Source of the DNA: an uncultured delta proteobacterium
GTDB lineage: Bacteria > Desulfobacterota > Desulfomonilia > UBA1062
DNA length: 64,000 bases
NCBI GenBank assembly: GCA_963798485.1
Contig: CAWCTR010000014.1
Coordinates: forward strand, 224,001 to 288,000
Direction of reading: 5' to 3'
The position numbers were made by a program, and so were the translations under genes. Below the pieces are notes generated by a model. That model ran no database searches and was not told the DNA's origin. It was given only the letters and a program-made list of their open reading frames with translations. Shown one piece after another: positions 307 to 25,373 of this stretch (position 1 is its first letter; each line of letters opens with the position of its first letter).

Positions 307-3300
307 ATGAATAGGGCACTGAAAATTCTGCTTATTGCTGCATGTACTGTGGCTACCCTTATGGTATGCCTTTTTGGTGCAGCTTATCTATACCTCCTCA
401 CTGACCCGGGGAAGAACTTCTTGTTACACACGATAAACACCCTCTATCCAGGCAAGATATCCGGTACGAAAATCGAACTCTCCTTGCTTACCCAGGAGGT
501 TGCGCTTGAAAATGCCATATTGTGCGGGCCTGACGGAAAGCAGGTCCTCAAGGCGAACCACGTGTACCTCAGGATGAACCTTCCCGCACTCCTCAGGTAT
601 AAGCTCATATTTGAGACTATTGACATAAAAAGGCCCGTGTTCGTCCTTGAACTTGATAAGGACGGCCGGCTCAATATCGAGAGCGCCTTTGTGGGAAAAA
701 CACCGGGCAATAGCCCGTTCAACGTGTATATCAACTCGCTCAACTGCGAGGGGGGGACATTTTCATACATCGGCCACGACAATAAGCCCATTATAAAGCT
801 CGAGAACTTTGATCTTCTCATGAACTCCGCATTTGAAACAGACACAACCCTGCACCTGTCCGTTCCAAAGGCCGATATGTCTCTCTTTGTTGCGGACAAA
901 AAGATCAATCTCGGGGCCGGCAAGGCATCATTCACCCTCTTCAATGACCGTATCAGGGATATCCATGTTACAACTAAAAATGGCTCTTCAACGGCCACAC
1001 TGACGGGTTCAGTAACCGATATGGCAAAAAAGGCGCAGCTTCACTGTAATCTTAACCTGAACACCGACATTGCAGACATAAGGGATGCCCTTGGGTTTGG
1101 CCCTGACAACACCGGCAGGATCACCGGCAGCATAACGGCAATCCATGACTATGACAACCCTGTAGTAACCGTTTCCCTTGGGTATGCCGGGGGTGATCTC
1201 AAGGGATTGAAGATCAACAAGGCTTTTCTTGATTGCAGTATGACCGACAGGGTGGCCGATATCAAAGATCTCCATGCTGCATACGCATCCGGTGTAATAG
1301 ATATCACAGGCATTGCGGATTTAAGAAAGGCCTTTTCTGAAGGCTATTTTGAAGGGATCAAGGAAGAAGATGCCATTACCTATGACCTCTCCATTACCGG
1401 TACCAGCCTTTTAATCTCGGATCTCCCCGGCATGCCCAAGGGATTAAGGGGGAAGCTGAGTCCAAGAATTGTCCTGAAGGGCTCCGGGGTCTCTGCGAAC
1501 TCTGTGCATCTTGATGCCCAATTTGCCGCACTTGTCCAGGGCATCACATCAGGCTCGTTCATGAAAGGTGATGAAGTCACCCTGGCAGGCAGGGTATCCT
1601 ACCGGAAGGATATGCTCAATATCAAGAGCCTCACTGCCCGGAACCGGGGCATATCAGCAACCTCTGAAGGAAATATCAACCTTGTCACCCGTGAATTAGA
1701 TGGAACAATTACCCTGGATGCATCACAGATTGGTGATTTGCTGAAAGGGTCAGGCATTGATGCAACCGGCGCGTTGAAGGCATCGTCACGCATCTCCGGG
1801 ACCTTGAAAAAGCCCCTTGCCGATATAACCGTGCATGTTGAAGGGACGAACATCAATGATATCACCCTTGGCACCATTGATCTGAAGGCCCTCCTGGGTC
1901 ACGATGGGAGGCTTGATGTCGGTTCCTGTTCCATAACCAACCGCACCTCAGCTATCCAGCTTAAGGGAAGCATCCAGGTCTTCAGTCAATTCCCCGCCAT
2001 GGTTTCCAACCCGGATATACTCATTGATTCGGACCTGCGCTCAGTAAACCCTTCGGATTTTTTCAAAAAGCTCCCGCTTTCAGGCATGGTAAATGGTCAT
2101 GTAAGCGCCAAAGGCCCTTTAAGCGACATTTCAGCAGACATGCGTCTGGACGGCAAGGAACTCTCCACATCGGATATACCACTTGGAGATGCCGTACTCA
2201 CCGGTTCCCTTTCACAAGGACTGCTCACTATATCACGCCTTGATTTTACCAATAAGCACTCGACAATGCTGATAACCGGCGATGCCGCTCTGTTCGACCC
2301 GGCACAGAAGCACCTGAACACGGACCCGGATATTCACCTCAAGGCCCAGGGTAACAACCTGCATGTTGAAGACTTCTTTGACAAGGCCACCGGCACATTC
2401 TCCATGAGTGCAATAATGGAAGGGTCCATGCTGCATCCCATCGGCGATATGGCGATTGCAGCAAAAAACCTCGACCTTGGCTTCCAGCGCTTCCAGAAGC
2501 TGGATATAAAGATTCAGGCAGACGGCGGCCGATTCTGGATAGACCCGGCAATACTGACCCTTTCAGGGGGTGAAAATCTGAATGCCACCGGTTGGCTCTC
2601 CACAGATGGGAAATATTCCTTTTCGCTCGGCACCCAGGGTTTAAGCCTGGAGAATCTCGACTTCATCAAAGGGCATGAGTCGGTGAAGGGAAAAATCTTT
2701 CTGAATGCCTCAGGTGAGGGGAACTTAAGCAACCCGACCCTAGCCGGGAGGATTGCTGCTACCAATATCATATTCGATGACAAACCTTTGGATGATCTGA
2801 CCTTCTCTTTTGAACTCAAGGACAATAAGGTGAGCATGCAGGGCAACTGGAACTTCTCTCTAAAGGCAGTGCATGACCTTTCCTCGGGCGATTTTTCCAC
2901 AACAGTCATTTTTGCCGAAACCGAGCTCGCCCCCTATTTCGTTATTACCGGCAGACCTACCTTCTCGGGAAGGCTTACCGGAAGGATAGATGCCCAGGGG
3001 AATTCAAGGTCACTTAAAAGTATTGATCTCATCGCCGACATTTCCACATTGGATATCCTTCAAAATAATAAAATGCTTATAATGGGCCGCACTATAAACG
3101 GATCATACAAACATGGTCTCCTCTCAATACCGCAAACAAGGTTCACCTTCGGGGATAAAGGCTGGTTCGACCTTAAGGGCTCCGGAGATAGCGTAAAGTC
3201 ATTGACCCTTGACGCCGAAGGGGTCATACCTGCTGAAGTCTTCGGTATGTTTGATGAAGATCTTTCAGACATATCGGGACTTATCCATGTGTCGTCCAAG

Positions 3301-4503
3301 ATCACCTCCCATGACAATAAACCTGAAGTCTCAGGGCTGCTCACCCTGGAGGATATCGCCTATACCATACCCATAAACGGACAGCGTTTGTACGCTATGA
3401 ATGGAAAGATCAGTATCCAGGATGACAAAATCTTCATCGAAGACCTAACCGGCAGGATCGATACAGGCTCTTTCAAGATGGAAGGTACTATAACTCGTCA
3501 AGGGTTTACACCAAGCTCAGTCGATCTGAAGACCCAGTTCACGGCATTGCCGATTTCGATCCCTGATATGATGGACTTCACCGTAGATGCCGAGGCCTCT
3601 CTTAATGCCTCTTCCGACCACTCCCAGCTCAAGTCCGATGTGATCATCCTTGATGGGACATATTATAAGGATGTACAAGTGAACCTACTGACCGGTGTTA
3701 TTGAACGCGTTCTACCAATACCCAAGCAGGGTAAGGAGCAGTTCATACCAACCCCGTTGCCCTTTATGAAGAATATGAACCTCGAAATCAACATCAAGCG
3801 CAGGGGTGATGTGAAGGTGGGAAACAATGTTGCAGATCTCTCTCTCAACCCGGATCTGAAGATTATCGGCACCCTGGTCAATCCTGTCCTGACCGGCAGG
3901 ATAGCAGTTACCGACGGCACCGTGAACTTTCAGAACAATGATTTCACGGTCTCACGCGGGGTCATTGATTTCCTCAACCCATACAAAACCCAGCCCACTG
4001 TGGACATTAAGGGCGAGGCCAAGGTCAGGGACTGGACTATTGACCTTGCTATTGAGGGACCGCTTGACAATATACAGTTCAATCTAACCTCGACACCCGC
4101 AGAGGAGCCTCCGGATATACTTTCCCTCCTGATCGTCGGGAAGACATCGCGTGAACTCACACAGAGCCAGACCGGGTTAACGGTTTCTCCGACAGCCATG
4201 GCCGCTGAGCTTCTAAACTCCACCTATGGCAGGCAGGTCAAGAAGGCCGCATCCCTTGACATCCTAGAGCTGAAGGCATCCGAATTCTCTACTTCGGATA
4301 AGGGAGAAAACCTCAAGCTGACCCTCGGCAAAGAGTTGTCCAGGAGGATGATCCTGGAATACCAGGTGGAAACCAGCAATACACAGACCGTTCAGAGGGG
4401 CATAGCTGAGTATAAGATCCTTGAGAATCTCATTGTTAACGGCTATCAGGGCACTGATGGAGTCTATGGTACGGATATCGAACTCAAATACGAGTTCCGC
4501 TGA
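307..4503 (+). CDS. tamB: Translocation/assembly module TamB (DUF490)
   Basis: 1398 aa, N-terminal TM anchor, repetitive beta-taco sequence, DUF490-like C-terminus ending YEFR; adjacent to an Omp85 gene. Confidence 0.85.
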   Translation: MNRALKILLIAACTVATLMVCLFGAAYLYLLTDPGKNFLLHTINTLYPGKISGTKIELSLLTQEVALENAILCGPDGKQVLKANHVYLRMNLPALLRYKLIFETIDIKRPVFVLELDKDGRLNIESAFVGKTPGNSPFNVYINSLNCEGGTFSYIGHDNKPIIKLENFDLLMNSAFETDTTLHLSVPKADMSLFVADKKINLGAGKASFTLFNDRIRDIHVTTKNGSSTATLTGSVTDMAKKAQLHCNLNLNTDIADIRDALGFGPDNTGRITGSITAIHDYDNPVVTVSLGYAGGDLKGLKINKAFLDCSMTDRVADIKDLHAAYASGVIDITGIADLRKAFSEGYFEGIKEEDAITYDLSITGTSLLISDLPGMPKGLRGKLSPRIVLKGSGVSANSVHLDAQFAALVQGITSGSFMKGDEVTLAGRVSYRKDMLNIKSLTARNRGISATSEGNINLVTRELDGTITLDASQIGDLLKGSGIDATGALKASSRISGTLKKPLADITVHVEGTNINDITLGTIDLKALLGHDGRLDVGSCSITNRTSAIQLKGSIQVFSQFPAMVSNPDILIDSDLRSVNPSDFFKKLPLSGMVNGHVSAKGPLSDISADMRLDGKELSTSDIPLGDAVLTGSLSQGLLTISRLDFTNKHSTMLITGDAALFDPAQKHLNTDPDIHLKAQGNNLHVEDFFDKATGTFSMSAIMEGSMLHPIGDMAIAAKNLDLGFQRFQKLDIKIQADGGRFWIDPAILTLSGGENLNATGWLSTDGKYSFSLGTQGLSLENLDFIKGHESVKGKIFLNASGEGNLSNPTLAGRIAATNIIFDDKPLDDLTFSFELKDNKVSMQGNWNFSLKAVHDLSSGDFSTTVIFAETELAPYFVITGRPTFSGRLTGRIDAQGNSRSLKSIDLIADISTLDILQNNKMLIMGRTINGSYKHGLLSIPQTRFTFGDKGWFDLKGSGDSVKSLTLDAEGVIPAEVFGMFDEDLSDISGLIHVSSKITSHDNKPEVSGLLTLEDIAYTIPINGQRLYAMNGKISIQDDKIFIEDLTGRIDTGSFKMEGTITRQGFTPSSVDLKTQFTALPISIPDMMDFTVDAEASLNASSDHSQLKSDVIILDGTYYKDVQVNLLTGVIERVLPIPKQGKEQFIPTPLPFMKNMNLEINIKRRGDVKVGNNVADLSLNPDLKIIGTLVNPVLTGRIAVTDGTVNFQNNDFTVSRGVIDFLNPYKTQPTVDIKGEAKVRDWTIDLAIEGPLDNIQFNLTSTPAEEPPDILSLLIVGKTSRELTQSQTGLTVSPTAMAAELLNSTYGRQVKKAASLDILELKASEFSTSDKGENLKLTLGKELSRRMILEYQVETSNTQTVQRGIAEYKILENLIVNGYQGTDGVYGTDIELKYEFR

Positions 4504-4507
4504 AAAT

Positions 4508-7333
4508 ATGCGCCCTGAAGCAAAACATCTCACTCTGTTACTATTCCTCATGCTCCTCTTGGCTACGCCCTGCCAGGGTCAGGAAGGTTCAAGCCAGGGT
4601 ATGCATATACCCAGTGAATATGCTGCCTTCGATGGCATGATTGTTAAGCTTATTCATATAGAGCTTATAGAATGCCCTTGGTGCACCAACACAATCGAAA
4701 ACCTGGCACGGGATCTTATCAATCTGCGTGTTGGAGAACCGTTTTCTAAGAAGCAGTATCAGCAGTCAATCGATGCCCTCATGCTCTCTAAGAGATTCGG
4801 AGCGGTGATCCCTGAAATAGAACGGGTTGAAGAAGGCATCAAAGTCACCTTCCTTCTCACTCCCTACAGAGAGATCAAGGACATTCAGATTCACGGTGAG
4901 TACCCTCTGTTCAAAAGCGATGTCTTAAAGTCCATGAACGTTTATCCTGGTGATGCACTGCTGCCTGATTCACCCGCAGTACTAGAGAAACTTATTGGTG
5001 ACCTGTATATAAAAGAAGGCTACAGAAACCCCCATATTTCCGTAACAGCAGGAAAAGACTTAAAAGGCGGGTTGGTAATCCTCGATGTGAGTATTAGACC
5101 CGGCCCATATTATTTTCTCGATTCCCTGAAGATAAGAGGAAACCATGCAATCATCTATGCCGAAATCAAGTCCCGCATGAACTCTTGGCGATCATCGTTT
5201 TTCATCAGGGAATCGGGCCGTTTCATAGAGAAGGAATTCACCCAGGATATAAAAGACCTCTTAGTCCTCTACTGGCAGCGGGGATACCCTGAATGCGAGA
5301 TACAAGAATCCGTCAATAAAAATGAGGCGACCGGCGAGGTGAAGGCCGAAGTTAACATTACGGAAGGGCCTTACTATGAACTATCCTTCTCCGGGAACAA
5401 GTGGTTCAAGTCATATACACTCAAGGATGATATACCGATCTTCATAAAAGGAAATAGGCGAGACAAGGGCATAAAAAACGGTATCAAGGAGATTAAGGAA
5501 CGATATCGAAAAGATGGTTTCCTTTTCACCGAAATCGAAATCCTTGAGGAGAAGGTAACCATAAAGGATGAAAAGATACGAAAACTCAATCTTTTAATCA
5601 AGGAGGGCCCCAGGACTCTTGTAGAATCCATACATTTTTCCGGCAACAGTTACTTCAGCGAGGAAGAACTGATAAATAAAATTCAGACAGGCAAGGCACC
5701 CTTCTATTCTCGGAAAATCTTTAATCCTGATATTTTGGAAAAGGACCTGGCATCTATTCGCGAGCTGTACCTTACCCGTGGATACAATGAAGTATCCGTA
5801 TCTCATGAACTGACCTGGAATAAAGATAAAACGGGTGTTTCAGTTCTTGTTAAGATCACCGAGGGTGTAAAGACCGCTGTCTCGTCTGTCAGGATATTGG
5901 GCCTTAAGACAATTCCCGAAAAAAAGGCCTTTAGTATCCTGCAACTTAAAGAAGGCAAGCCCTTCAGAAGTGATGTCATAAAGTCTGATGAGACCGCCCT
6001 TTCAGGGTTTATCTCGGAAAATGGCTACCCGTACGTGAGCGTGAAGACGGAAGTTGTCATGTCTAAAGATAATACCGAGGCTGCCATTACGTACGCTGTT
6101 GATGAAGGTCAGCGCATGACCATGGGAAACATCTATTACCGGGGCAACTTCAAGACAAGGACGAGTGTCATCAAGAAGGAACTGGGTATTGAGCCCGGAC
6201 AGCCGTTCTCGCTTAAAACCATGCTTGAAGGACAAAAAAATATCCGGAATATGGAGGTCTTTGATTCGGTACAATTTAAGACCTTCGGGATCAAAGAGGA
6301 GAAAGACCGCGTCACGCTGCTCATTGATATGGAGGAGACCGAACCCTACTATGTCCAGGCCGCTACCGGCTATGCTTCTGACCGCGGGTTGTATGGGAAC
6401 ACGCGTGTCGGCGACCACAACATCTTCGGATTGAACAAGGACGCATGGATCGGCGGCGAGCTGAGCCAAATCGGCTACCAAGGCGGGCTCAGCATCACCC
6501 AGCAGAGGATCTTTGATACCCCCGTTACCAACACCAATGCACTCTCCTATGAGAAAAAGGCAGAGTTTAACCAGATCTTCGGGACCTCGGTCTGGACTTC
6601 GTCATGTAACTTTTTGCGGGTATACAAACCGCATATAACAACATCGCTTGGCTTCAGGTATGAATGGAGAGATCAATTTCTCAAGGATAGATCATTTACA
6701 ATTCCGCCGGGAGATGAAGATTCTTACGAGCCCCGTGGTTCACTGATAACCACCCCATTCATCTCCTATGACACCAGGGATTCCTTCGTAAGGCCCAAAG
6801 AGGGGTTTTATTCCTCTTATTCAGTGGATATATCAAAGGGTTATCAGAATTCCCTGGATAATTTCTTAAAACATTATCTGAATCTCCGTTACTACTACAG
6901 CCCATTCCAGAGGCTCACCCTGGCCTGGCTTGGTCGTTCAGGCTATATCTACACCTATGGGAAGAAAGGTCAGCTCCCGGTGGACCAGCTCTTCTATTTG
7001 GGCGGGACTATGGATGTGAGGGGATATAATGAGAACATGCTCAGGTATGATACCAGCGGAAACCCGGTAGGCGGCCGCCTGTCGCTTGTGGGAAGCATGG
7101 AGGCGCGTATAGAAGTTTCACATAATTGGGAGACAGCCCTCTTCTATGATACGGGTTCGGTCAGGAAGGCGCTCGTGGATGCAGGGTCTGATATCTTCAG
7201 GTCCTCTGTCGGTATCGGGCTCAGGTATGTCACCCCCATCGGCCCAATGGGATTGCTCTATGGCTACAAGATTCATCCCAAAGAAGGCGAGAGCCCGGGC
7301 AGATTCCTTTTCTCGTTGGGATATACATTTTAA
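4508..7333 (+). CDS. Omp85-family (BamA/TamA-like) outer membrane protein with multiple POTRA domains
   Basis: POTRA repeats (I.F.GN, Y...GY), VRGY motif, terminal GYTF; likely start ATG 4508 followed by a signal peptide. Confidence 0.85.
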   Translation: MRPEAKHLTLLLFLMLLLATPCQGQEGSSQGMHIPSEYAAFDGMIVKLIHIELIECPWCTNTIENLARDLINLRVGEPFSKKQYQQSIDALMLSKRFGAVIPEIERVEEGIKVTFLLTPYREIKDIQIHGEYPLFKSDVLKSMNVYPGDALLPDSPAVLEKLIGDLYIKEGYRNPHISVTAGKDLKGGLVILDVSIRPGPYYFLDSLKIRGNHAIIYAEIKSRMNSWRSSFFIRESGRFIEKEFTQDIKDLLVLYWQRGYPECEIQESVNKNEATGEVKAEVNITEGPYYELSFSGNKWFKSYTLKDDIPIFIKGNRRDKGIKNGIKEIKERYRKDGFLFTEIEILEEKVTIKDEKIRKLNLLIKEGPRTLVESIHFSGNSYFSEEELINKIQTGKAPFYSRKIFNPDILEKDLASIRELYLTRGYNEVSVSHELTWNKDKTGVSVLVKITEGVKTAVSSVRILGLKTIPEKKAFSILQLKEGKPFRSDVIKSDETALSGFISENGYPYVSVKTEVVMSKDNTEAAITYAVDEGQRMTMGNIYYRGNFKTRTSVIKKELGIEPGQPFSLKTMLEGQKNIRNMEVFDSVQFKTFGIKEEKDRVTLLIDMEETEPYYVQAATGYASDRGLYGNTRVGDHNIFGLNKDAWIGGELSQIGYQGGLSITQQRIFDTPVTNTNALSYEKKAEFNQIFGTSVWTSSCNFLRVYKPHITTSLGFRYEWRDQFLKDRSFTIPPGDEDSYEPRGSLITTPFISYDTRDSFVRPKEGFYSSYSVDISKGYQNSLDNFLKHYLNLRYYYSPFQRLTLAWLGRSGYIYTYGKKGQLPVDQLFYLGGTMDVRGYNENMLRYDTSGNPVGGRLSLVGSMEARIEVSHNWETALFYDTGSVRKALVDAGSDIFRSSVGIGLRYVTPIGPMGLLYGYKIHPKEGESPGRFLFSLGYTF

Positions 7334-7351: not shown

Positions 7352-9043
7352 TCACTCCAGGTCAAGCCCCAGCTGCCCCCCGGGGTTCATGATGTTGTTC
7401 GGGTCAAAGTGTCTCTTGAGCGCCCTTAAAACTGCCATTTGCTCCGCTCCGAGATACGCCCCGATCCAAGGTGCGATCATGCGGCCGATACCGTGGTGAT
7501 GACTCAAGGAGCCTCCGCATTTGTCAATATGGTCTATAATCCCTCTTTGAAATGTCCTGAATTCATCAAGGTCATCCATCTTTGCCAGGAAGATAAAGTA
7601 GAGGTTCGTGCCCTGCGGGTAAAAATGGGATGCATGGGTCATACACATAGTATGAGGCCGTGACTTGATGTGTTCCCTTACGCCCTGGTGCACGGCATGC
7701 AGGTTATCCCATTTCACAGAGCACTCCAGCGTATCGATAACAACCCCGAAATCCATGAGGTCTTCCCGCATGTACGGTTCTTTATAGCGGGTATGTTCCC
7801 ATTTTTTCGCAGCATACCCGGTCAGTGAAATAGCCCCGAACTCTTTGCATATCCTCTTTGCCTGCCGTTCGATATTCCTGGTAAAGGTAGCCTCTCCTTC
7901 AGCGCTTCCCAGGCAGAGGCAGCGCTGCATGGGCCTGTACCCCCTGCCTTTGAGAAAGGCATCCACAAACCCGGGCATCCCGTAGAGTTTGAGGCCCCTT
8001 TCGGTCTCCTCAGGATCGGATATGCGAAAGATGGCAGGCATGCCGAATTCACCCTGGCAGATCTCCCTGCCGGCGTTCACGGCCGCCTCCCATGTAGGAA
8101 ACATGAAGCTGAAGCGCCTGGTATTCCCGGGCATAGAGCGGTAAATCTTCATGGTGGCTTCCACCAGTACCCCATAAGTCCCCTCGCTGCCCTTCATGAT
8201 GTCGTTTACCTTGGGTCCTGTTGCGCATGCAGGGAAATCATGAGTCTTGATGGTGCCCACGGGTGTTACGTACTCCTGGCTGATGACCAGGTCATAGGCA
8301 TCCCCATAGTAGGATGATGCCTGGCCTGAACCCAAGGTCACGATCCAGCCGCCCACGGTTGAATACTCAAAAGACTGGGGAAAGTGGCCGCAGGTGTACC
8401 TTTGATTCGTATGGAAGAGCTCCGGGGCCCTATGCAGGGCCTCTTCATAGGCAGGCCCGTATAATCCTGGTTGCACCCTGGCGGTCTGGTTGGCTTCATT
8501 GACTTCGAGAACCTTGTTCATATGGGTGCTCATGACGAGCGAGATACCTCCCTTTTCCGGTCTCACTCCAAAGTTCACCGAGCTGCCGGCCCCGAAGGCA
8601 TAGACAGGTATCCTGTTTTCATTGCAATAGGCAACGATATGCTGCACATCTTCGGCGGTGCGGGGGTGCACCACAAGGTCAGCCACCTGATTGATAATGC
8701 CCTTTCTGAGTTCCATCATCTCCTCGGTAGTTTTTCCCAGCGCGTATTTAACCCTGCTGTAATCGTCGGAGGTCACATTCTCCTTGCCCACAATGGCCTC
8801 AAACCACTCCATATGATGAGCTTCCAGGGCAGCCGGCCTGTTCAGAGCGACACTCCCCAGACCCTGATCTTTTTTGGTTCGGAAGTCCTCATCTTTCATG
8901 GAGAACTCTTCTTTTATCATCTCAAACCACTTTGCGCTCGGATGTTTGAAGATATGAGGGTCACCATATTTGAATATGGATCGGTAAGAACCTTTGGGCG
9001 GGGCAACTTCGGTCCATTTCGGCACGAACTTTTTCCTGATCAT
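7352..9043 (-). CDS. FAD-linked oxidase, alkyldihydroxyacetonephosphate-synthase-like
   Basis: GHFPQSFEYSTVGGW, GSEGTYGV, SHHHGIG, DPNNIMNPG. Confidence 0.8.
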   Translation of the reverse strand: MIRKKFVPKWTEVAPPKGSYRSIFKYGDPHIFKHPSAKWFEMIKEEFSMKDEDFRTKKDQGLGSVALNRPAALEAHHMEWFEAIVGKENVTSDDYSRVKYALGKTTEEMMELRKGIINQVADLVVHPRTAEDVQHIVAYCNENRIPVYAFGAGSSVNFGVRPEKGGISLVMSTHMNKVLEVNEANQTARVQPGLYGPAYEEALHRAPELFHTNQRYTCGHFPQSFEYSTVGGWIVTLGSGQASSYYGDAYDLVISQEYVTPVGTIKTHDFPACATGPKVNDIMKGSEGTYGVLVEATMKIYRSMPGNTRRFSFMFPTWEAAVNAGREICQGEFGMPAIFRISDPEETERGLKLYGMPGFVDAFLKGRGYRPMQRCLCLGSAEGEATFTRNIERQAKRICKEFGAISLTGYAAKKWEHTRYKEPYMREDLMDFGVVIDTLECSVKWDNLHAVHQGVREHIKSRPHTMCMTHASHFYPQGTNLYFIFLAKMDDLDEFRTFQRGIIDHIDKCGGSLSHHHGIGRMIAPWIGAYLGAEQMAVLRALKRHFDPNNIMNPGGQLGLDLE

Positions 9044-9059
9044 CTGCTACCTCTGATTT

Positions 9060-16537: not shown

Positions 16538-16666
16538 GCCCCGATTATACCACTTTCAAGCAGGAAAAGAGAAATATCATTATCATATAACCTTTTCAAA
16601 ACATCCATGCAGGCAACCGGGGTATTGACAGACACGTGGAAAGTGCTCTATAGAGCATCCATAATT

Positions 16667-16718
16667 CCGGGGAAGGAGTCCCCCCTGTAACCGCCAGGCA
16701 GGCTGATGACTCCTATCA
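16667..16718 (+). ncRNA. Fluoride riboswitch (crcB motif) #1
   Basis: GGGGAAGGAGTCCCCC...AACCGCC...GGCTGATGACTCCTA: P1 stem, GGAGT/ACTCC pseudoknot, CTGATGAC core; TTGACA at 16625; 22 nt upstream of ATG 16740. Confidence 0.85.
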
Positions 16719-16739
16719 GAGCAATCTGAAGGAGCGTAT

Positions 16740-18404
16740 ATGGAGTTTGTATCTAAAAGCCTACCCATCTCAGACACCAAGGAATTGGTCGGCAGGGTCA
16801 ACAAAGCAGCCTCCCGGTTTCACATCGTTTCCCTGAACCGCCAGATCGAAGTCTGCGAAAGCCTCCTCAAGGAAAACCCGCTTATCGATGTGGCCATACT
16901 CGGCCAGTTCAAGGCGGGCAAGAGCTCGTTCATCAACAGCCTTGTGGACCGGGAAATACTCCCAGTCGGAGTCATCCCGGTCACCACGGTGATCACCCGT
17001 CTTCAATACGGCCCGCAAGAACGCTCGGTGATCACATATATCGATGGTACAAGGTCTGAGATAGGTATCGAAGAGCTGGGGAAGTTCATTTCCGAGGCAC
17101 AGAACCCATCAAATTCCAAGAACGTCGATATCGTGGACATAGAGTTGCCTGCACTCGAAGCTTATCCCGGGCTCCGTCTGGTGGATACCCCGGGGCTGGG
17201 AAGCGTGTTCAAGTATCACAAGGAGGTGTCCGAGAACTGGCTCCCCGAGGTCGGGGCTGCCGTCCTTGCCATCAGTTCCGACCGCCCGCTCTCCGAGCAT
17301 GATCTCAATCTTATCGCAGACCTCTCCCATCATACCCCCATGATCGTCATCCTCCTCACCAAGGCCGACCTTTTGACCCCGGATCAGCAGAATGAGGTGG
17401 TGCAATTCTTCCAGCAGACATTAAAGCGGAAGCTGAACCGTGAGTATCCCATATTCCCCTATTCAACCCGATCCGGGATGGAATTCTTCAAGCACCGGAT
17501 CGAGTCGGAGCTCCTTTCCGGCTTGTCCAAGAACCGGGATCAGGAGTTTAACCGCATACTCAACTACAAAACCCAGTCACTGCTCAAAAGTTGTCTAACC
17601 TATCTCAATATCGCCATGAAGACTTCTGTCGAGGCCGATCAGGACCGGGAGGCGCTCCGCTCTCAGATCCTGAATGAAAAGGTCGGCTATGATCAGATCA
17701 GGGAAGAGATCGGCGTCATTACAAGAGAATGCCAGAGGCAGACCCGGGCCCTCCTGACGAATCATCTTGAAAAATTCAAGGATCCCCTCACGGAGAAGCT
17801 CAAGGCCGAGCTGTCCGGAGAGATGCCTTCCTGGAAAGGAAACCTGTGGAGGCTGACCAGAAGGTATGAAGCATGGGTGACCGAAACCATGGAAGAAGAG
17901 ATACGGCATATCTCCAAGACGGAAAACCATCACTTCTACGGCACCCTGAACAAGGCACATAACAGCCTCACCCGGTACCTTGAAACCTTCAGGATGCTGC
18001 TCAATGACAATATTGACAAGGTGCTGGGAATAAAGCTTGCGGAGGCGGACTGGAAGATCGAGTTGACAGAGCCTGATAATCCCGACATCGGGGTTCTCTA
18101 CACCTTTGATTTCAAATTCGATCTCCTCTGGTTCCTCATCCCCATGTTTATTTTCAGGAGGTTTTTTGAACAACATTATCTGGGAGAGATCCCCTGGGCG
18201 ACGGAGGTGAATATCTCCCGGCTCATTACCCAGTGGGAAACCAGGATCAACAAGGCCATCGACGAAATGCGCAAACAGGCGGAAGGCTATATCAAGGATG
18301 AGATATCCACGATCGATGCCCTATTGTCATCACAGGGACAGGAAAAGACCCATGAGCTTTATGAACTGATTTCAGAACTTCAGGGATTTGTAGTCAATGT
18401 TTGA
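16740..18404 (+). CDS. Bacterial dynamin-family GTPase
   Basis: G1 GQFKAGKS, G2 PVTT, G3 DTPG, G4 TKAD; helical stalk and hydrophobic paddle (FDLLWFLIPMFIF). Confidence 0.85.
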   Translation: MEFVSKSLPISDTKELVGRVNKAASRFHIVSLNRQIEVCESLLKENPLIDVAILGQFKAGKSSFINSLVDREILPVGVIPVTTVITRLQYGPQERSVITYIDGTRSEIGIEELGKFISEAQNPSNSKNVDIVDIELPALEAYPGLRLVDTPGLGSVFKYHKEVSENWLPEVGAAVLAISSDRPLSEHDLNLIADLSHHTPMIVILLTKADLLTPDQQNEVVQFFQQTLKRKLNREYPIFPYSTRSGMEFFKHRIESELLSGLSKNRDQEFNRILNYKTQSLLKSCLTYLNIAMKTSVEADQDREALRSQILNEKVGYDQIREEIGVITRECQRQTRALLTNHLEKFKDPLTEKLKAELSGEMPSWKGNLWRLTRRYEAWVTETMEEEIRHISKTENHHFYGTLNKAHNSLTRYLETFRMLLNDNIDKVLGIKLAEADWKIELTEPDNPDIGVLYTFDFKFDLLWFLIPMFIFRRFFEQHYLGEIPWATEVNISRLITQWETRINKAIDEMRKQAEGYIKDEISTIDALLSSQGQEKTHELYELISELQGFVVNV

Positions 18405-18450
18405 ACACCCTTACCCGGCATAGGCAAAAAACATCAAGACGGAGGATTCC

Positions 18451-19650
18451 ATGGAACTATCTTTTACTATCGCGACCCTGTGGGTCGGCCTAGCGGTCAT
18501 TGCAACCATTATTGCTTATCACATCCGCATCTCAATGGCCCTGGTCGAAATCTGTGTCGGTATGGTGGCAGGGGCGTTATGGGAACACTACTTCGGCAAG
18601 GAACTGCTGGGAGCAAACGTTGATTGGCTGCGCTTTCTCGCTTCCACGGGGGCCATTCTCCTGACCTTTCTGGCAGGCGCAGAACTGGACCCTGAGGTCA
18701 TCGGCTCGAAATGGAAAGAGGTTACCATTGTCGGGCTTATCGGCTTTCTAGCCCCTTTTTTAGGGTGTACCGCGCTTGCCCGCTATGCCCTGGGATGGAC
18801 CCCTTCAGCAAGCCTTCTTGCAGGAGTAGCCCTCTCGACCACGTCCATGGCGGTGGTCTATGCAGTGATGATCGAGACCGGCTTCAACAATACCGAGTTT
18901 GGCAAAGGGATCCTCGGCGCATGCTTTATAAATGACCTCGGAACCGTCATCGCCTTGGGACTCATCTTTGCCCCCTTCTCCTATAAGACCTTCATCTTTA
19001 TCGGGGTAACCGCTGCCGCGATTGCGTTGCTTCCGTTTATATCCAAGCGCATCACACGGAAATACGGACATCGGACAGCCGCCATCAGGGCCAAGTGGAT
19101 ACTGTTCGTTCTGTTCGGTCTCGGAGCGCTGGCGGTGTGGTCCGGCAGCGAAGCGGTATTGCCTGCCTACCTGGTAGGGATAGTGCTGGCCGAATTCGCC
19201 GGTAACGATCACTTATGGGTGAGGAGGATGCGAACCCTCACCATAGGATTTCTGACCCCGTTCTATTTTATCCGGGCAGGCTCCCTGGTTTCGCTTCCTG
19301 CCATCATGACTGCACCGCTGATCTTCATTCTCCTTCTGGCCGGGAAGGTTGTCAGTAAGATATTCGGACTCTATCCCGTGATCGGCTTTTTCAGAAAGGA
19401 AACCAATGAGCGCTGGTATTACACCCTGATGATGTCGACCGGGCTCACCTTCGGCACCATATCGTCACTCTATGGCTTCACCCATGGGATCATCACGCGC
19501 GGGCAGTATTCCTTTCTGGTTGCCGGTGTCATCGCAAGCGCCGTTATCCCCACGATAATCGCCAACCTTGCATTCATCCCCTATTCCCTCCTGCCCGACC
19601 GGCCCGAGCCTACGGTTGAAGAGGTGGAAGATGGCCTTGGGGATGAGTGA
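18451..19650 (+). CDS. Cation:proton antiporter (CPA2-like)
   Basis: Polytopic membrane protein; TFLAGAELD, STTSMAVV, FINDLG, STGLTFG. Confidence 0.85.
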   Translation: MELSFTIATLWVGLAVIATIIAYHIRISMALVEICVGMVAGALWEHYFGKELLGANVDWLRFLASTGAILLTFLAGAELDPEVIGSKWKEVTIVGLIGFLAPFLGCTALARYALGWTPSASLLAGVALSTTSMAVVYAVMIETGFNNTEFGKGILGACFINDLGTVIALGLIFAPFSYKTFIFIGVTAAAIALLPFISKRITRKYGHRTAAIRAKWILFVLFGLGALAVWSGSEAVLPAYLVGIVLAEFAGNDHLWVRRMRTLTIGFLTPFYFIRAGSLVSLPAIMTAPLIFILLLAGKVVSKIFGLYPVIGFFRKETNERWYYTLMMSTGLTFGTISSLYGFTHGIITRGQYSFLVAGVIASAVIPTIIANLAFIPYSLLPDRPEPTVEEVEDGLGDE

Positions 19651-19901
19651 GATGAGTGATAGGAGAGAAAATGGGTTTCAGCTTGTTCCCTACACGTTGT
19701 GGAAACTATCATAGTTAAACAAGCATAATGGGGGCGGCATGGCATGTTCTGGAAAGGTTGGCAACATGTGAAGGGAGGCAAAGCATGACAGAAAAGACGG
19801 CCGTATCTCGTGAGGCTGTGCTCGATGTTCGCAAGCTGGACAATCCCTCCCGTTCGTGATTGACAGCTTTACCCTTAATACAGTACACATTTAACGAAGA
19901 T

Positions 19902-19949
19902 CGGGGATGGAGTCCCCCATAATTGCCGGGCAGGCTGATGACTCCTGTC
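19902..19949 (+). ncRNA. Fluoride riboswitch (crcB motif) #2
   Basis: GGGGATGGAGTCCCCCATAATTGCC...GGCTGATGACTCCTG, close to consensus; TTGACA at 19860. Confidence 0.9.
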
Positions 19950-19971
19950 AGAGAAATCTGAAGGAGAAGGT

Positions 19972-20162: not shown

Positions 20163-20166
<4 letters not shown>
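19972..20166 (+). CDS. Short leader or remnant ORF behind riboswitch #2
   Basis: AGGAG SD; MELALKCHP resembles the dynamin start MEFVSKSLP; stop overlaps the HIT start (ATGA). Confidence 0.35.
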
Positions 20167-20979
<813 letters not shown>

Positions 20980-21054: not shown

Positions 21055-21735
21055 TTATTGATCTTGGTTCATTTCAGGCCCGGTGGAAAATTTGACCCTG
21101 TAATCTTTCACCGCTCCCTGTTTGAATCTCTCGAATGTCTGCTCCACCTCTGCGCTGTAATCAATTCCGGATTCATATGTGCAAACCTTGATGCTGTTAT
21201 CCTTTATGAGCAGGCAATACTTTGCGGCGGATAAATCGGCTTTAAGCTTTTTCGTTTCAGCTAAAAGGGACGTAAAATGGCCGGATTCGGCATAGTTCGT
21301 TATATACTCGCGTAAGGCTAAAAAGCCTCGCGATTTTAAATCTGCAAGGGTTAACTCATGTACCAGGCGATGAACGGCTTCACAATAAATATCTATTGTT
21401 TCTAAAAACCATCCTTCCTTGTGGTATTTGTACTGAAGCTTTTCCACAAGGGCAAGATGCTGTCGCATTGTGCGCATTTCTTGTGCAAATGTTTTTATAT
21501 TCTCAAAGAGAATTTTATTTTCCAGGTCCTGCATTATTTCATGACGATACTTGATCGTGTCGATATCGGATAGGGAAGTGTAAAAAAACGGCTTTAGATT
21601 ATATTCCTGCCTGTGGGCCGTGATGGTATCGATAACCTGATCAAGATTCAAATCAACAAAAAAGGCGGGCGCTTCAAGCGATTCTTTTTTTGTGCCCTCT
21701 TCAGTTCTTTCAAATAATATGCTGTGGAAAGTCAT
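21055..21735 (-). pseudogene. MutS-related protein, truncated before the ATPase domain
   Basis: MTFHSILF...FFVDLNLDQ...YRHEIMQDLE...FERFKQGAVKDY, recalled as the N-terminus of the standalone MutS-domain-V family; ends at 226 aa with no P-loop. Confidence 0.65.
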
Positions 21736-21793
21736 GAGACAAACACCTCCTGGGCCATGATGCGGACGCACCACTTCAACTCTACCGCCGCAT

Positions 21794-21845
21794 GGTAGGA
21801 GTTATCAGCCCGGCCCGGGCGTTTGTCAGGGGAACTCCATCCCTT
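21794..21845 (-). ncRNA. Fluoride riboswitch (crcB motif) #3
   Basis: Minus strand AGGGATGGAGTTCCCCTGACAAACGCCCGGGCCGGGCTGATAACTCCTACC. Confidence 0.9.
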
Positions 21846-21857
21846 TGTAAGGGTCAA

Positions 21858-23651: not shown

Positions 23652-25373
23652 GTGAGTAGAGATTATCTGAATTTGATACGTTCCTTGTTAAGGGGTCTGC
23701 CGGAAAATACCCGCACCCTCATACTCACTATTATTTATGGTGTTATAGCCGGGTCGGCGGCAGTATGCTTCATGACCCTTCTTAACCTGGTTTATGAAAA
23801 TACCTTCATTGTCTTCTCCTCTCATTCCAAACTCTTCTTCCTGATTGCAAGTTTTATCTTGGTCGTGAGCACCTCACTCATGGCAGGTTTCCTGCTTTTT
23901 AAATTCGACCCGGATGCGGCAGGGAGTGGCATTCCACAGCTCAAGGCTGCTTATTGGAAAGAAGTAGGCTATGTGCCGTGGCGTCCGGTTCTCATCAAGT
24001 TTATAGCCGGCGTACTCAATATCGGCGGAGGCGCCAGCCTGGGCCGTGAGGGGCCCACCGTTTATATCGGCGGTGGTATAGCCTCAAATCTTGCAGGGTT
24101 CATGGGGGTTCCCATACGGAGGCGGCGAAGCGCGGTTGTTATCGGTGCATCTGCCGGATTGGCCGCTGCCTTTAATGCACCTCTTGCTGCCATAACATTC
24201 ATCCTCGAAGAGTTTGTCAGCGATATCGATAACCGTTTTATCGGCCGCGTCGTACTCTCTTCCCTGCTCGGGGCATTTGTCGTATACGCCTTTATAGGCA
24301 GGCAGCCGGCTTTCAAACTCCCATCCATCGAATCCGTATCCTGGTCGCACTACACGATTGTCCCTGTAGTCGCCGTCTTTGCCGCTCTTGCCGGCGTCAT
24401 CTTTCAGCAGGCAACGCTCTCCATAAGGTACCGTCTTAAGAGGCAGAAGGCAGTTCCTGCCTGGCTTTTACCCTGTTTCGGAGGACTCATTGTATGGGTC
24501 ATCGGCTCCGCCGTCTTTTGTACTACCGGAAAGCTCGGGGTCTTCAGCCTCGGGTATCATGATCTCTCAAGCGCCTTGGATAATAATTTTATCTGGTGGG
24601 TTGCAGGAATCATGGTGGTTGCCAAGCTGCTGGCGACTATATTGTCCTATAGTTTCGGAGGATGCGGGGGAATCTTTTCACCTCTGCTCTTCATCGGCGG
24701 TATGTGCGGGTATTTCATCGGAGGCCTCACCGGTCATTGGATCCCGGTAACACCGTCCGATAGAGTCGTTCTTTCAGCGGTCGGTATGAGCACCTGCCTT
24801 GGAGTGGTCGTCAGGGCGCCCCTCACCTCTTTATTGATTGTTTTTGAAATGACACACCAGTTCGACCTCATCCCGGGATTGATGATCGGCACTTTCATCG
24901 GCGTCATCATCTCTCATGCCTTCGGCAAAGAGAATTTCTATGATGCGTCGCTGCTTCAAGACGGGCATGAGCTTATAAAGATCAGACCGCCCTTGGACAT
25001 AAAGGGCTGGCAAAACCTCCCCATTTCCTCAATTGCCAATCCACACCCGATTGTCGTGGATAATCTTGATGAAAGCCATCTTCAGCCCATACTTGATAAC
25101 CACCCATACAATTGTTTCCCTATCCTTTTAGAAAATAATGAGGTCGGTGTTATAACCCGGGATCACATGGAGTCCATTATTGCCCATAAGACAGTACCGG
25201 AAATTCCCAAAGCCGTATTCTGTCACCCGGATCAGACTGTCAAGGATGTCGGCAATAAATTTATAGAATCGCCAAGCGGCGTCATCATTGTCATAGACGA
25301 AAAAACAGGAGACATAACCGGTATTGTAACCCTCCATGATCTTCTCCGCGCACAGGCTTCTATTTTAGGTTAA
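23652..25373 (+). CDS. CLC chloride channel/antiporter with CBS domains
   Basis: GSGIP, GREGP, GIFSP; C-terminal CBS pair. Confidence 0.9.
   Translation: MSRDYLNLIRSLLRGLPENTRTLILTIIYGVIAGSAAVCFMTLLNLVYENTFIVFSSHSKLFFLIASFILVVSTSLMAGFLLFKFDPDAAGSGIPQLKAAYWKEVGYVPWRPVLIKFIAGVLNIGGGASLGREGPTVYIGGGIASNLAGFMGVPIRRRRSAVVIGASAGLAAAFNAPLAAITFILEEFVSDIDNRFIGRVVLSSLLGAFVVYAFIGRQPAFKLPSIESVSWSHYTIVPVVAVFAALAGVIFQQATLSIRYRLKRQKAVPAWLLPCFGGLIVWVIGSAVFCTTGKLGVFSLGYHDLSSALDNNFIWWVAGIMVVAKLLATILSYSFGGCGGIFSPLLFIGGMCGYFIGGLTGHWIPVTPSDRVVLSAVGMSTCLGVVVRAPLTSLLIVFEMTHQFDLIPGLMIGTFIGVIISHAFGKENFYDASLLQDGHELIKIRPPLDIKGWQNLPISSIANPHPIVVDNLDESHLQPILDNHPYNCFPILLENNEVGVITRDHMESIIAHKTVPEIPKAVFCHPDQTVKDVGNKFIESPSGVIIVIDEKTGDITGIVTLHDLLRAQASILG

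Follow-up and report, generated by a model that had tools for sequence, protein, structure and literature searches.

Translational fluoride riboswitches are a known class, and those of Pseudomonas syringae and Burkholderia pseudomallei combine an aptamer of family RF01734 with ON logic, a 3' strand shared by the pseudoknot and the platform helix, and no terminator (PMC12667848; this and all further sources given by identifier are cited from excerpts). In the current account, microbial fluoride resistance comprises two exporter families and a few metabolic adjustments. The classical fluoride regulon includes Fluc/CrcB, CLC-F, Na+/H+ antiporters, pyrophosphatase, enolase, HAD phosphatases, formate hydrogen lyase and MutS-like proteins (PMC11139923; Weinberg et al. 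2010, PMC2864571), the Na+/H+ antiporters being the second commonest class associated with fluoride riboswitches (PMC11139923). Here, 64,000 nucleotides (nt) of an uncultured delta proteobacterium (Desulfobacterota; Desulfomonilia; UBA1062; contig CAWCTR010000014.1, positions 224,001 to 288,000; hereafter the window) were analyzed, in which a fluoride aptamer (RS1) stands directly before the genes for a dynamin-like GTPase and a CPA2-type cation/proton antiporter. RS1 shares the aptamer family, the proposed ON logic, the doubly used 3' strand and the missing terminator with the two described switches (PMC12667848); it differs from them in that it would control a dynamin-like GTPase instead of an exporter, and in having an A at the position equivalent to U7. 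RS1 is one of three riboswitches in a 'fluoride island' of 5.2 kb, in which the antiporter, an enolase remnant and a MutS-like remnant all fall in classes listed for the classical regulon (PMC11139923; PMC2864571). The difference is that the island holds the GTPase, and that Pfam search detected no exporter gene, whether in the island or elsewhere in the genome.

Fluoride aptamers were located with Rfam RF01734 at the gathering threshold. The genome of the window (4.3 Mb, 97.5% complete) gave exactly three, RS1 to RS3, all inside the window. RS1 covered the full model (1-64) with a score 13 bits above the gathering score of 34 (E = 6.2e-10). Both the P1 and P2 stems were present in the alignment, with P1 beginning at 16669, and the pseudoknot strands were GGAGU in the P1 loop (16675-79) and ACUCC in the 3' strand (16709-13). 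Judged from this alignment, RS1 is a genuine fluoride aptamer. Overlapping ACUCC is CUCCU (16710-14), followed in order by A, UCAGA (16716-20), GCAA, UCUGA (16725-29), AGGAG (16730-34), CGUAU and the ATG of the GTPase gene (16740), so that the sequence can be written as a hairpin whose 3' arm is the ribosome-binding site of that gene. The hairpin was the minimum-free-energy (MFE) fold in every stretch folded, at -12.7 kcal/mol for 16709-16745. The bases that follow it, CGUAUAUG, contain no U-run (maxT = 1), and a terminator scan was empty there; a translational ON switch is therefore the best reading. Without fluoride, CUCCU would pair with AGGAG and the ribosome-binding site of the GTPase gene would be hidden. 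Once fluoride is bound, as a Mg-F complex, the pseudoknot would lock up ACUCC, the hairpin would be blocked and the GTPase translated, and the antiporter encoded 46 nt downstream would be produced from the same mRNA. RS1 as a translational fluoride ON switch governing the GTPase-antiporter operon is given a probability of roughly 0.7.

To place the locus among its relatives, GTPase homologues were sampled at one genome per species, which gave 158 relatives, and the best 80 loci (L-numbered) were retained and searched for aptamers. Three without upstream DNA (L029, L059, L081) were left out, leaving 77 assessable loci. An aptamer stood directly upstream on the same strand in 63 of the 77, with 30-100 nt separating the pseudoknot strand from the inferred start; as the relatives are kin, these and the following counts are not counts of independent events. 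It lay 0.8-2.3 kb upstream on the same strand in 6 loci and elsewhere in the locus in 2, and in the remaining 6 none was detected by Rfam at the gathering threshold. The linkage followed sequence identity to the window's GTPase: at 50% identity or above, 60 of 61 assessable loci had the aptamer directly upstream (the exception being L066), compared with 3/16 loci at 41% or below. Loci outside Desulfobacterota were labeled Planctomycetota, Goldbacteria, Elusimicrobia, Acidobacteria, Verrucomicrobia, Bacteroidales, Bdellovibrionales and a Firmicute; these are the record labels of metagenome-assembled genomes (MAGs) and only as reliable as the records.

The six distal loci had only co-directional open reading frames (ORFs) between switch and GTPase gene. 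The order was switch-enolase-GTPase in L076 (Syntrophomonas palmitatica JCM 14374, a cultured strain; span 1637-5611) and in L086, and an N-terminal piece of enolase occupied the interval in L072. Other classic fluoride genes occurred in two more loci, as switch-CrcB-DUF190-ORF-GTPase in L083 (Bacteroidales MAG, 2704-5602) and switch-PAP2-CLC (435 amino acids, aa)-GTPase in L085 (Bdellovibrionales MAG, 332-4223). A MoxR ATPase and a metallophosphatase were found in L070.

Genomes were numbered separately, with G000 for that of the window, G001-G040 for 40 relatives, and G002 for the sister genome. The aptamer was adjacent in 8/8 of the relatives with an assessable close GTPase orthologue, and in G005, G008, G009, G012 and G023 the aptamer next to the GTPase gene was the sole fluoride aptamer of the genome. 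The best explanation of these sequence comparisons is that the GTPase family of about 550 aa is a dedicated member of the fluoride regulon in many lineages. The family seems to be a component of how microbes respond to fluoride that has not been described before: literature searches returned no paper tying dynamins to fluoride riboswitches, with Baker et al. 2012 and its supplements, which might hold an entry, outside the search. Neither dynamin nor GTPase is mentioned in the excerpts of PMC11139923 or of the crcB section of Weinberg et al. 2010 (PMC2864571).

The 63 leaders with an adjacent aptamer were folded individually, from the pseudoknot strand to the inferred start codon, and pairing was scored as direct where at least 3 of the 4 CUCC bases were paired with the ribosome-binding-site window. 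Direct pairing was found in 48/63. In another 11 leaders CUCC paired with GCAGGAG and a second strand, CUCCUGC, held the ribosome-binding site; this four-part relay is, as predicted from the folds, a switch with the same logic. Neither pattern was present in 4/63. A consensus was sought with RNAalifold on 30 simple leaders, and retained the outer 5-pair helix only; the inner stems (UCAGA/UCUGA, CAGG/CCUG and CCAG/CUGG, for example) differ in sequence between leaders, vary in length and could not be aligned by MAFFT, for which reason per-sequence folds were used. One double compensatory change was seen in the outer helix, in leader L067. The sequence of this helix would be fixed because of its double duty in the pseudoknot and in pairing with the ribosome-binding site.

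A run of at least five U between ribosome-binding site and start codon was present in 35/63 leaders, and these look like intrinsic terminators that would double as sequesterers of the ribosome-binding site. Control of the window's operon might on this evidence be mainly transcriptional, with the hairpin working as a terminator or uncovering a Rho site, and the hiding of the ribosome-binding site would come second; untranslated leaders are often Rho targets. The RS1 hairpin itself has neither a U-run nor a terminator in the scan, and the U-less form is common to the window, RS2 and the closest relatives (L007-L009 and L047), so that mainly transcriptional control was rated highly improbable. 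For the translational ON switch, the earlier account made from the letters alone (the sequence-only reading) had named a fluoride aptamer, a hairpin burying the Shine-Dalgarno sequence of the dynamin gene, and a strand needed by both, from which it expected fluoride to free that site. The aptamer was borne out by the RF01734 match and the hairpin by its exact sequence and its MFE fold. The shared strand held up as well, in RS1 and in the directly pairing leaders, and together with this recurrence and the lack of a terminator it supports the expected release by fluoride.

Among bacterial dynamins, IniA has a role in membrane fission. The window's GTPase matched Pfam Dynamin_N at a cut-off of 27 bits (score in Table 1), with a G domain at about 49-240, a helical stalk at 248-552 and a hydrophobic tip at 459-478. 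The G1-G4 motifs (GxxxxGKS 55-62, T82, DTPG 149-152, TKAD 207-210) were invariant or nearly so in 37 homologues with identity down to 28%. An AlphaFold model (predicted local distance difference test 84.5, predicted template-modeling score 0.72) had one low-confidence loop at 430-458; the hydrophobic helix after it, FDLLWFLIPMFIFRRFF (about 458-478), is conserved, with an invariant P468, and is a candidate membrane paddle in the model. Foldseek ranked IniA (5e-19) and BDLP (7e-18), both at probability 1.00, first, followed by the Campylobacter dynamin-like protein (DLP) pair and SynDLP. Template-modeling (TM) scores for IniA and BDLP were only 0.31-0.35, at 13-17% identity, and such low TM-scores are expected because the proteins are hinged. 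A sequence-profile search of the PDB gave 5owv_C (8.5e-24, residues 40-402), 2j68 (4e-19) and 6j72 (2e-18). On profile and modeled fold together, the GTPase is a bacterial dynamin-like protein of the BDLP/IniA class, encoded by a single gene.

The best fold matches, IniA of Mycobacterium smegmatis (PDB 6j72) and BDLP of Nostoc punctiforme (PDB 2j68/2j69), share with the GTPase a G domain, a long helical neck or trunk and a hydrophobic tip. Stress also induces IniA, which the PDB title names as isoniazid-inducible. The GTPase differs from both in length (about 550 aa vs. 606-695 aa) and in that its inducing signal would be fluoride, sensed by RNA. The best sequence-profile match, chain C of 5owv, is from DLP1/DLP2 of Campylobacter jejuni, which are a heterotypic pair encoded side by side, in contrast to the single gene of the window. 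More than 1,500 homologues were found; the best 120 were all about 555 aa long and 59-92% identical, from MAGs of Desulfomonilia, Syntrophales and related groups. Of the clusters in a 50%-identity library, 3,048 matched the GTPase at E <= 1e-30, and the best 150 of these all had E below 1e-112, most being 530-580 aa long. Two further statements of the sequence-only reading fared well here: the dynamin-like identity was confirmed at both sequence level (Pfam, PDB profiles) and fold level (AlphaFold, Foldseek), and the remark that no role for a dynamin in fluoride tolerance was known agreed with the literature searches. It had also named a linkage confined to this genome as a finding that would speak against it, and the 63 of 77 assessable related loci with a switch directly upstream clearly show that the linkage is not so confined.

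The antiporter matched Pfam Na_H_Exchanger against a cut-off of 26.2 bits (Table 1) and TIGR00932 with 103 bits, below its cut-off of 238, and had no KTN/RCK regulatory domain. The 46-nt spacer between the GTPase and antiporter genes (18404-18451) contained no aptamer by Rfam and no terminator-like site by scan; the spacer is 46-47 nt long and aptamer-free in both the window and G002. CPA2 orthologues, 43-95% identical to that of the window, followed the GTPase gene in 6 loci, and in 4 of the 6 the CPA2 gene had its own fluoride aptamer directly upstream (L007 5710-5774, L024 2882-2943, L030 6630-6691, L036 5785-5846), which makes the antiporter a fluoride-regulon gene in its own right. Antiporters are already a known kind of fluoride-riboswitch gene (PMC11139923, as excerpted), and the new element is the dynamin.

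Partner genes were surveyed as the first two downstream ORFs of at least 120 aa at the 63 loci (110 ORFs). The classes found were enolase (17 loci), HIT (9), CPA2 as Na_H_Exchanger (6), AAA_16 (6), MFS (5), prenyltransferase-like (4) and HEAT_2 (3). By gene order, the switch-GTPase-CPA2 triple is one of several arrangements and not a fixed unit. Enolase, a known fluoride target, was the commonest downstream partner, and this bears on the possibility that the GTPase is raised, like enolase, to compensate for inhibition. Metal fluorides act on G proteins as transition-state mimics; MgF3- and AlF4- would trap the GTPase, and more enzyme would be made with no protection gained. The family, however, is nearly always behind a riboswitch (as in the 60 of 61 close loci), so that it should be near-silent without fluoride, unlike a housekeeping enzyme, and no second clear dynamin was found in the genome of the window, where the only other Dynamin_N match scored 25 bits. 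Compensation was given a small probability.

The exporter results rest on Pfam searches of MAGs, in which 'not found' does not equal absent. No CRCB domain (PF02537) was found in the window's genome; CRCB was present in 2/41 genomes (the 40 relatives and that of the window), and was not found in the 24 relatives of the same family. The single CLC gene of the genome lies 1.8 kb from RS3 and has no aptamer of its own. In CLC-F proteins the helix-D serine is missing and the gating Glu is followed by Thr or Val (Brammer et al. 2014, PMC4113899). By this criterion the window's CLC was rejected as a fluoride exporter, as it has the canonical chloride-type motifs GSGIP and GREGP; GREGP was found in 23/25 CLC loci (24 from relatives and that of the window), and the pattern matched none in the other 2. 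In G005 and G023 neither CLC nor crcB was found, yet the GTPase stands behind the only fluoride riboswitch of each genome. These searches are best explained by a lineage in which neither Fluc/CrcB nor CLC-F was found and the GTPase is the core riboswitch-controlled gene.

The GTPase would be a membrane-binding, GTP-driven remodeller like BDLP and IniA, which would protect or repair the cytoplasmic membrane under fluoride, a role put slightly short of an even chance. The antiporter would offset the acidification and ion imbalance that accompany entry of hydrogen fluoride, and presumably serves pH or ion homeostasis. A broader proposal, that the GTPase and a paired transporter (CPA2 here, MFS elsewhere) form the core of a fluoride tolerance independent of both exporter families, was considered unlikely; on that view, in lineages such as this one the GTPase would either protect the membrane against fluoride damage or aid an unrecognised exporter in clearing fluoride, and fluoride itself, in a metal-fluoride form that mimics the transition state, may cause the GTPase to assemble.

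A GTPase that follows fluoride riboswitches across several phyla and dozens of species, and is in some genomes the sole riboswitch-controlled gene, would add a membrane-level branch to the fluoride response. Bacterial dynamins, whose natural triggers are mostly unknown, would gain a defined and easily applied inducing signal. The locus also raises the question of how lineages lacking Fluc and CLC-F cope with fluoride, which is relevant to anaerobic communities facing fluoride or the defluorination of organofluorine compounds.

Several observations weigh against RS1 as a fluoride ON switch for a protective operon. The membrane role of the GTPase is purely inferred. To our knowledge, fluoride is not a classic membrane-damaging agent. 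The wide variation of partner genes between loci argues against one fixed GTPase-antiporter machine, an exporter of an unrecognised family may be present, and kinship among the genomes means that the locus counts exaggerate the number of independent events. The energy of the RS1 hairpin is unexceptional (z = -1.7 to -2.0; 13 of 200 shuffles were equally stable); support for the hairpin comes from conservation. Lastly, the ion site of RS1 reads G-A-A-G instead of G-A-U-G and so departs from the conserved nucleotides of RF01734: position 16674 is A, vs. U in 84 of 85 distinct aptamers picked by pattern from the window and the loci. The equivalent position is U in the sister genomes, and RS2 is canonical there. 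A16674 may be tolerated, may weaken fluoride binding, or may be an assembly error in the MAG.

The unique A16674 would also fit an RS1 in decay, in which the U-to-A change weakens or abolishes sensing and the operon of this genome is locked off or leaky, with the family-level linkage unaffected. The island is visibly eroded relative to G002, with a GGGtGRT gene lost and the enolase and MutS-like genes truncated. RS1 nevertheless still scores well above the cut-off, and the nucleotides of G-A-U-G hold the Mg ions that bind fluoride through their backbone phosphates, not through the base (10.1101/2024.06.23.600262). Both operon genes, moreover, are intact and of full length, at 88-95% identity to their orthologues, which speaks for continued use. 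Decay of RS1 was regarded as quite improbable.

Upstream of RS1, a promoter-like site (TTGACA/TATAGA) was read by eye; it would start the transcript near 16661, just 5' of the aptamer, and a second TTGACAG copy precedes RS2, matching the -35 region of RS1 in the alignment. A consensus promoter scan returned TGGAAA/CATAAT at 16637-16665 and not TTGACA/TATAGA, and the former would cut into the aptamer. The sequence-only reading had pointed to a 14-bp palindrome, TGCTCTATAGAGCA, over the likely -10 box. It lies exactly there and overlaps the putative -10 box, but no significance could be attached to it: perfect 14-bp palindromes numbered 3 in the window vs. 3.9 expected (4.4 +/- 2.3 in 50 Markov simulations), and similarity to the two closest genomes starts only at 16667-16669, 3' of the palindrome. 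As an operator it was rejected on both grounds, and it is probably a chance occurrence.

Table 1. Features of the fluoride island and its surroundings, in window coordinates.
Feature	Position	Strand	Basis
Promoter-like site, TTGACA (16625-30), 18 nt spacer, TATAGA (16649-54)	16625-16654	+	By eye
Palindrome TGCTCTATAGAGCA, perfect 14-bp, overlapping putative -10 box	16644-16657		
RS1 fluoride aptamer (crcB motif)	16660-16722	+	RF01734, 47.1 bits
Predicted sequestering hairpin; 3' arm is the Shine-Dalgarno sequence (16730-34)	16710-16734	+	MFE fold
Dynamin-like GTPase, 554 aa	16740-18404	+	Pfam Dynamin_N, 85.4 bits
CPA2-type cation/proton antiporter, 399 aa	18451-19650	+	Pfam Na_H_Exchanger, 108.6 bits
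RS2 fluoride aptamer	19894-19954	+	RF01734, 48.5 bits
Leader ORF, 64 aa	19972-20166	+	ORF list
HIT-family hydrolase gene	20163-20630	+	Pfam HIT, 58.1 bits
Enolase 3' remnant	20635-20979	+	Pfam Enolase_C, profile positions 185-294
Truncated MutS-domain-V family gene behind RS3	21055-21735	-	Similarity to G002 ORF; no Pfam match
RS3 fluoride aptamer	21789-21853	-	RF01734, 45.1 bits
CLC, 573 aa, CBS domain	23652-25373		Motifs GSGIP/GREGP/GIFSP

RS2 and RS3, both within the island, had not appeared in the sequence-only reading, and neither had A16674. RS2 aligned with RS1 as its paralogue over a stretch that starts at the -35 box, takes in the hairpin and ends in the first codons, and the RS2 hairpin (19942-19966) was the same as that of RS1 by alignment and fold, with two substitutions, both outside pairs. 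RS2 leads the 64-aa ORF that overlaps the start of the HIT gene. The first 36 or so codons of this ORF are conserved in G002, where it is retained as an ORF (read by eye); as a candidate remnant of a dynamin gene, its resemblance to the dynamin start is limited to the first few codons. At 9 of the 63 related loci a HIT gene comes after the GTPase or the enolase gene. HIT enzymes hydrolyse nucleoside phosphofluoridates, which could presumably explain a link between HIT genes and fluoride riboswitches.

In G002, whose GTPase is 90% identical, the order was RS1, GTPase, CPA2, GGGtGRT protein, RS2, leader ORF, HIT and full-length enolase, with RS3 and two MutS-domain-V genes convergent to these; an IS1595 transposase interrupts the first of the two MutS-domain-V genes. 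Of the enolase gene, which in G002 has its full 429 aa after HIT, the window has just the 3' third; an intact enolase gene lies elsewhere on the window's contig (G000:C14:384107-384955). The MutS-like protein behind RS3 has been cut down to its N-terminal 236 residues, with loss of the ATPase domain; residues 100-236 were 93% identical to 1-137 of a 425-aa ORF of G002 that has MutS_V at 248-413. The units still whole in the window are GTPase-CPA2 and HIT.

About 1 kb of G002 (L089 8276-9368), with the gene for the GGGtGRT protein (330 aa, PF14057), is missing from the window at 19654-19848. A member of the GGGtGRT family follows the GTPase gene in L062 as well, and the family may be another member of the fluoride regulon. 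As a separate observation on such loci, three relatives had matches to the nhaA-I RNA (RF03057) no more than a few kb from their fluoride-GTPase loci, at 3740-3785 (-) in L008, at 1183-1228 and 1729-1787 (-) in L009, and at 8991-9047 (+) in L062.

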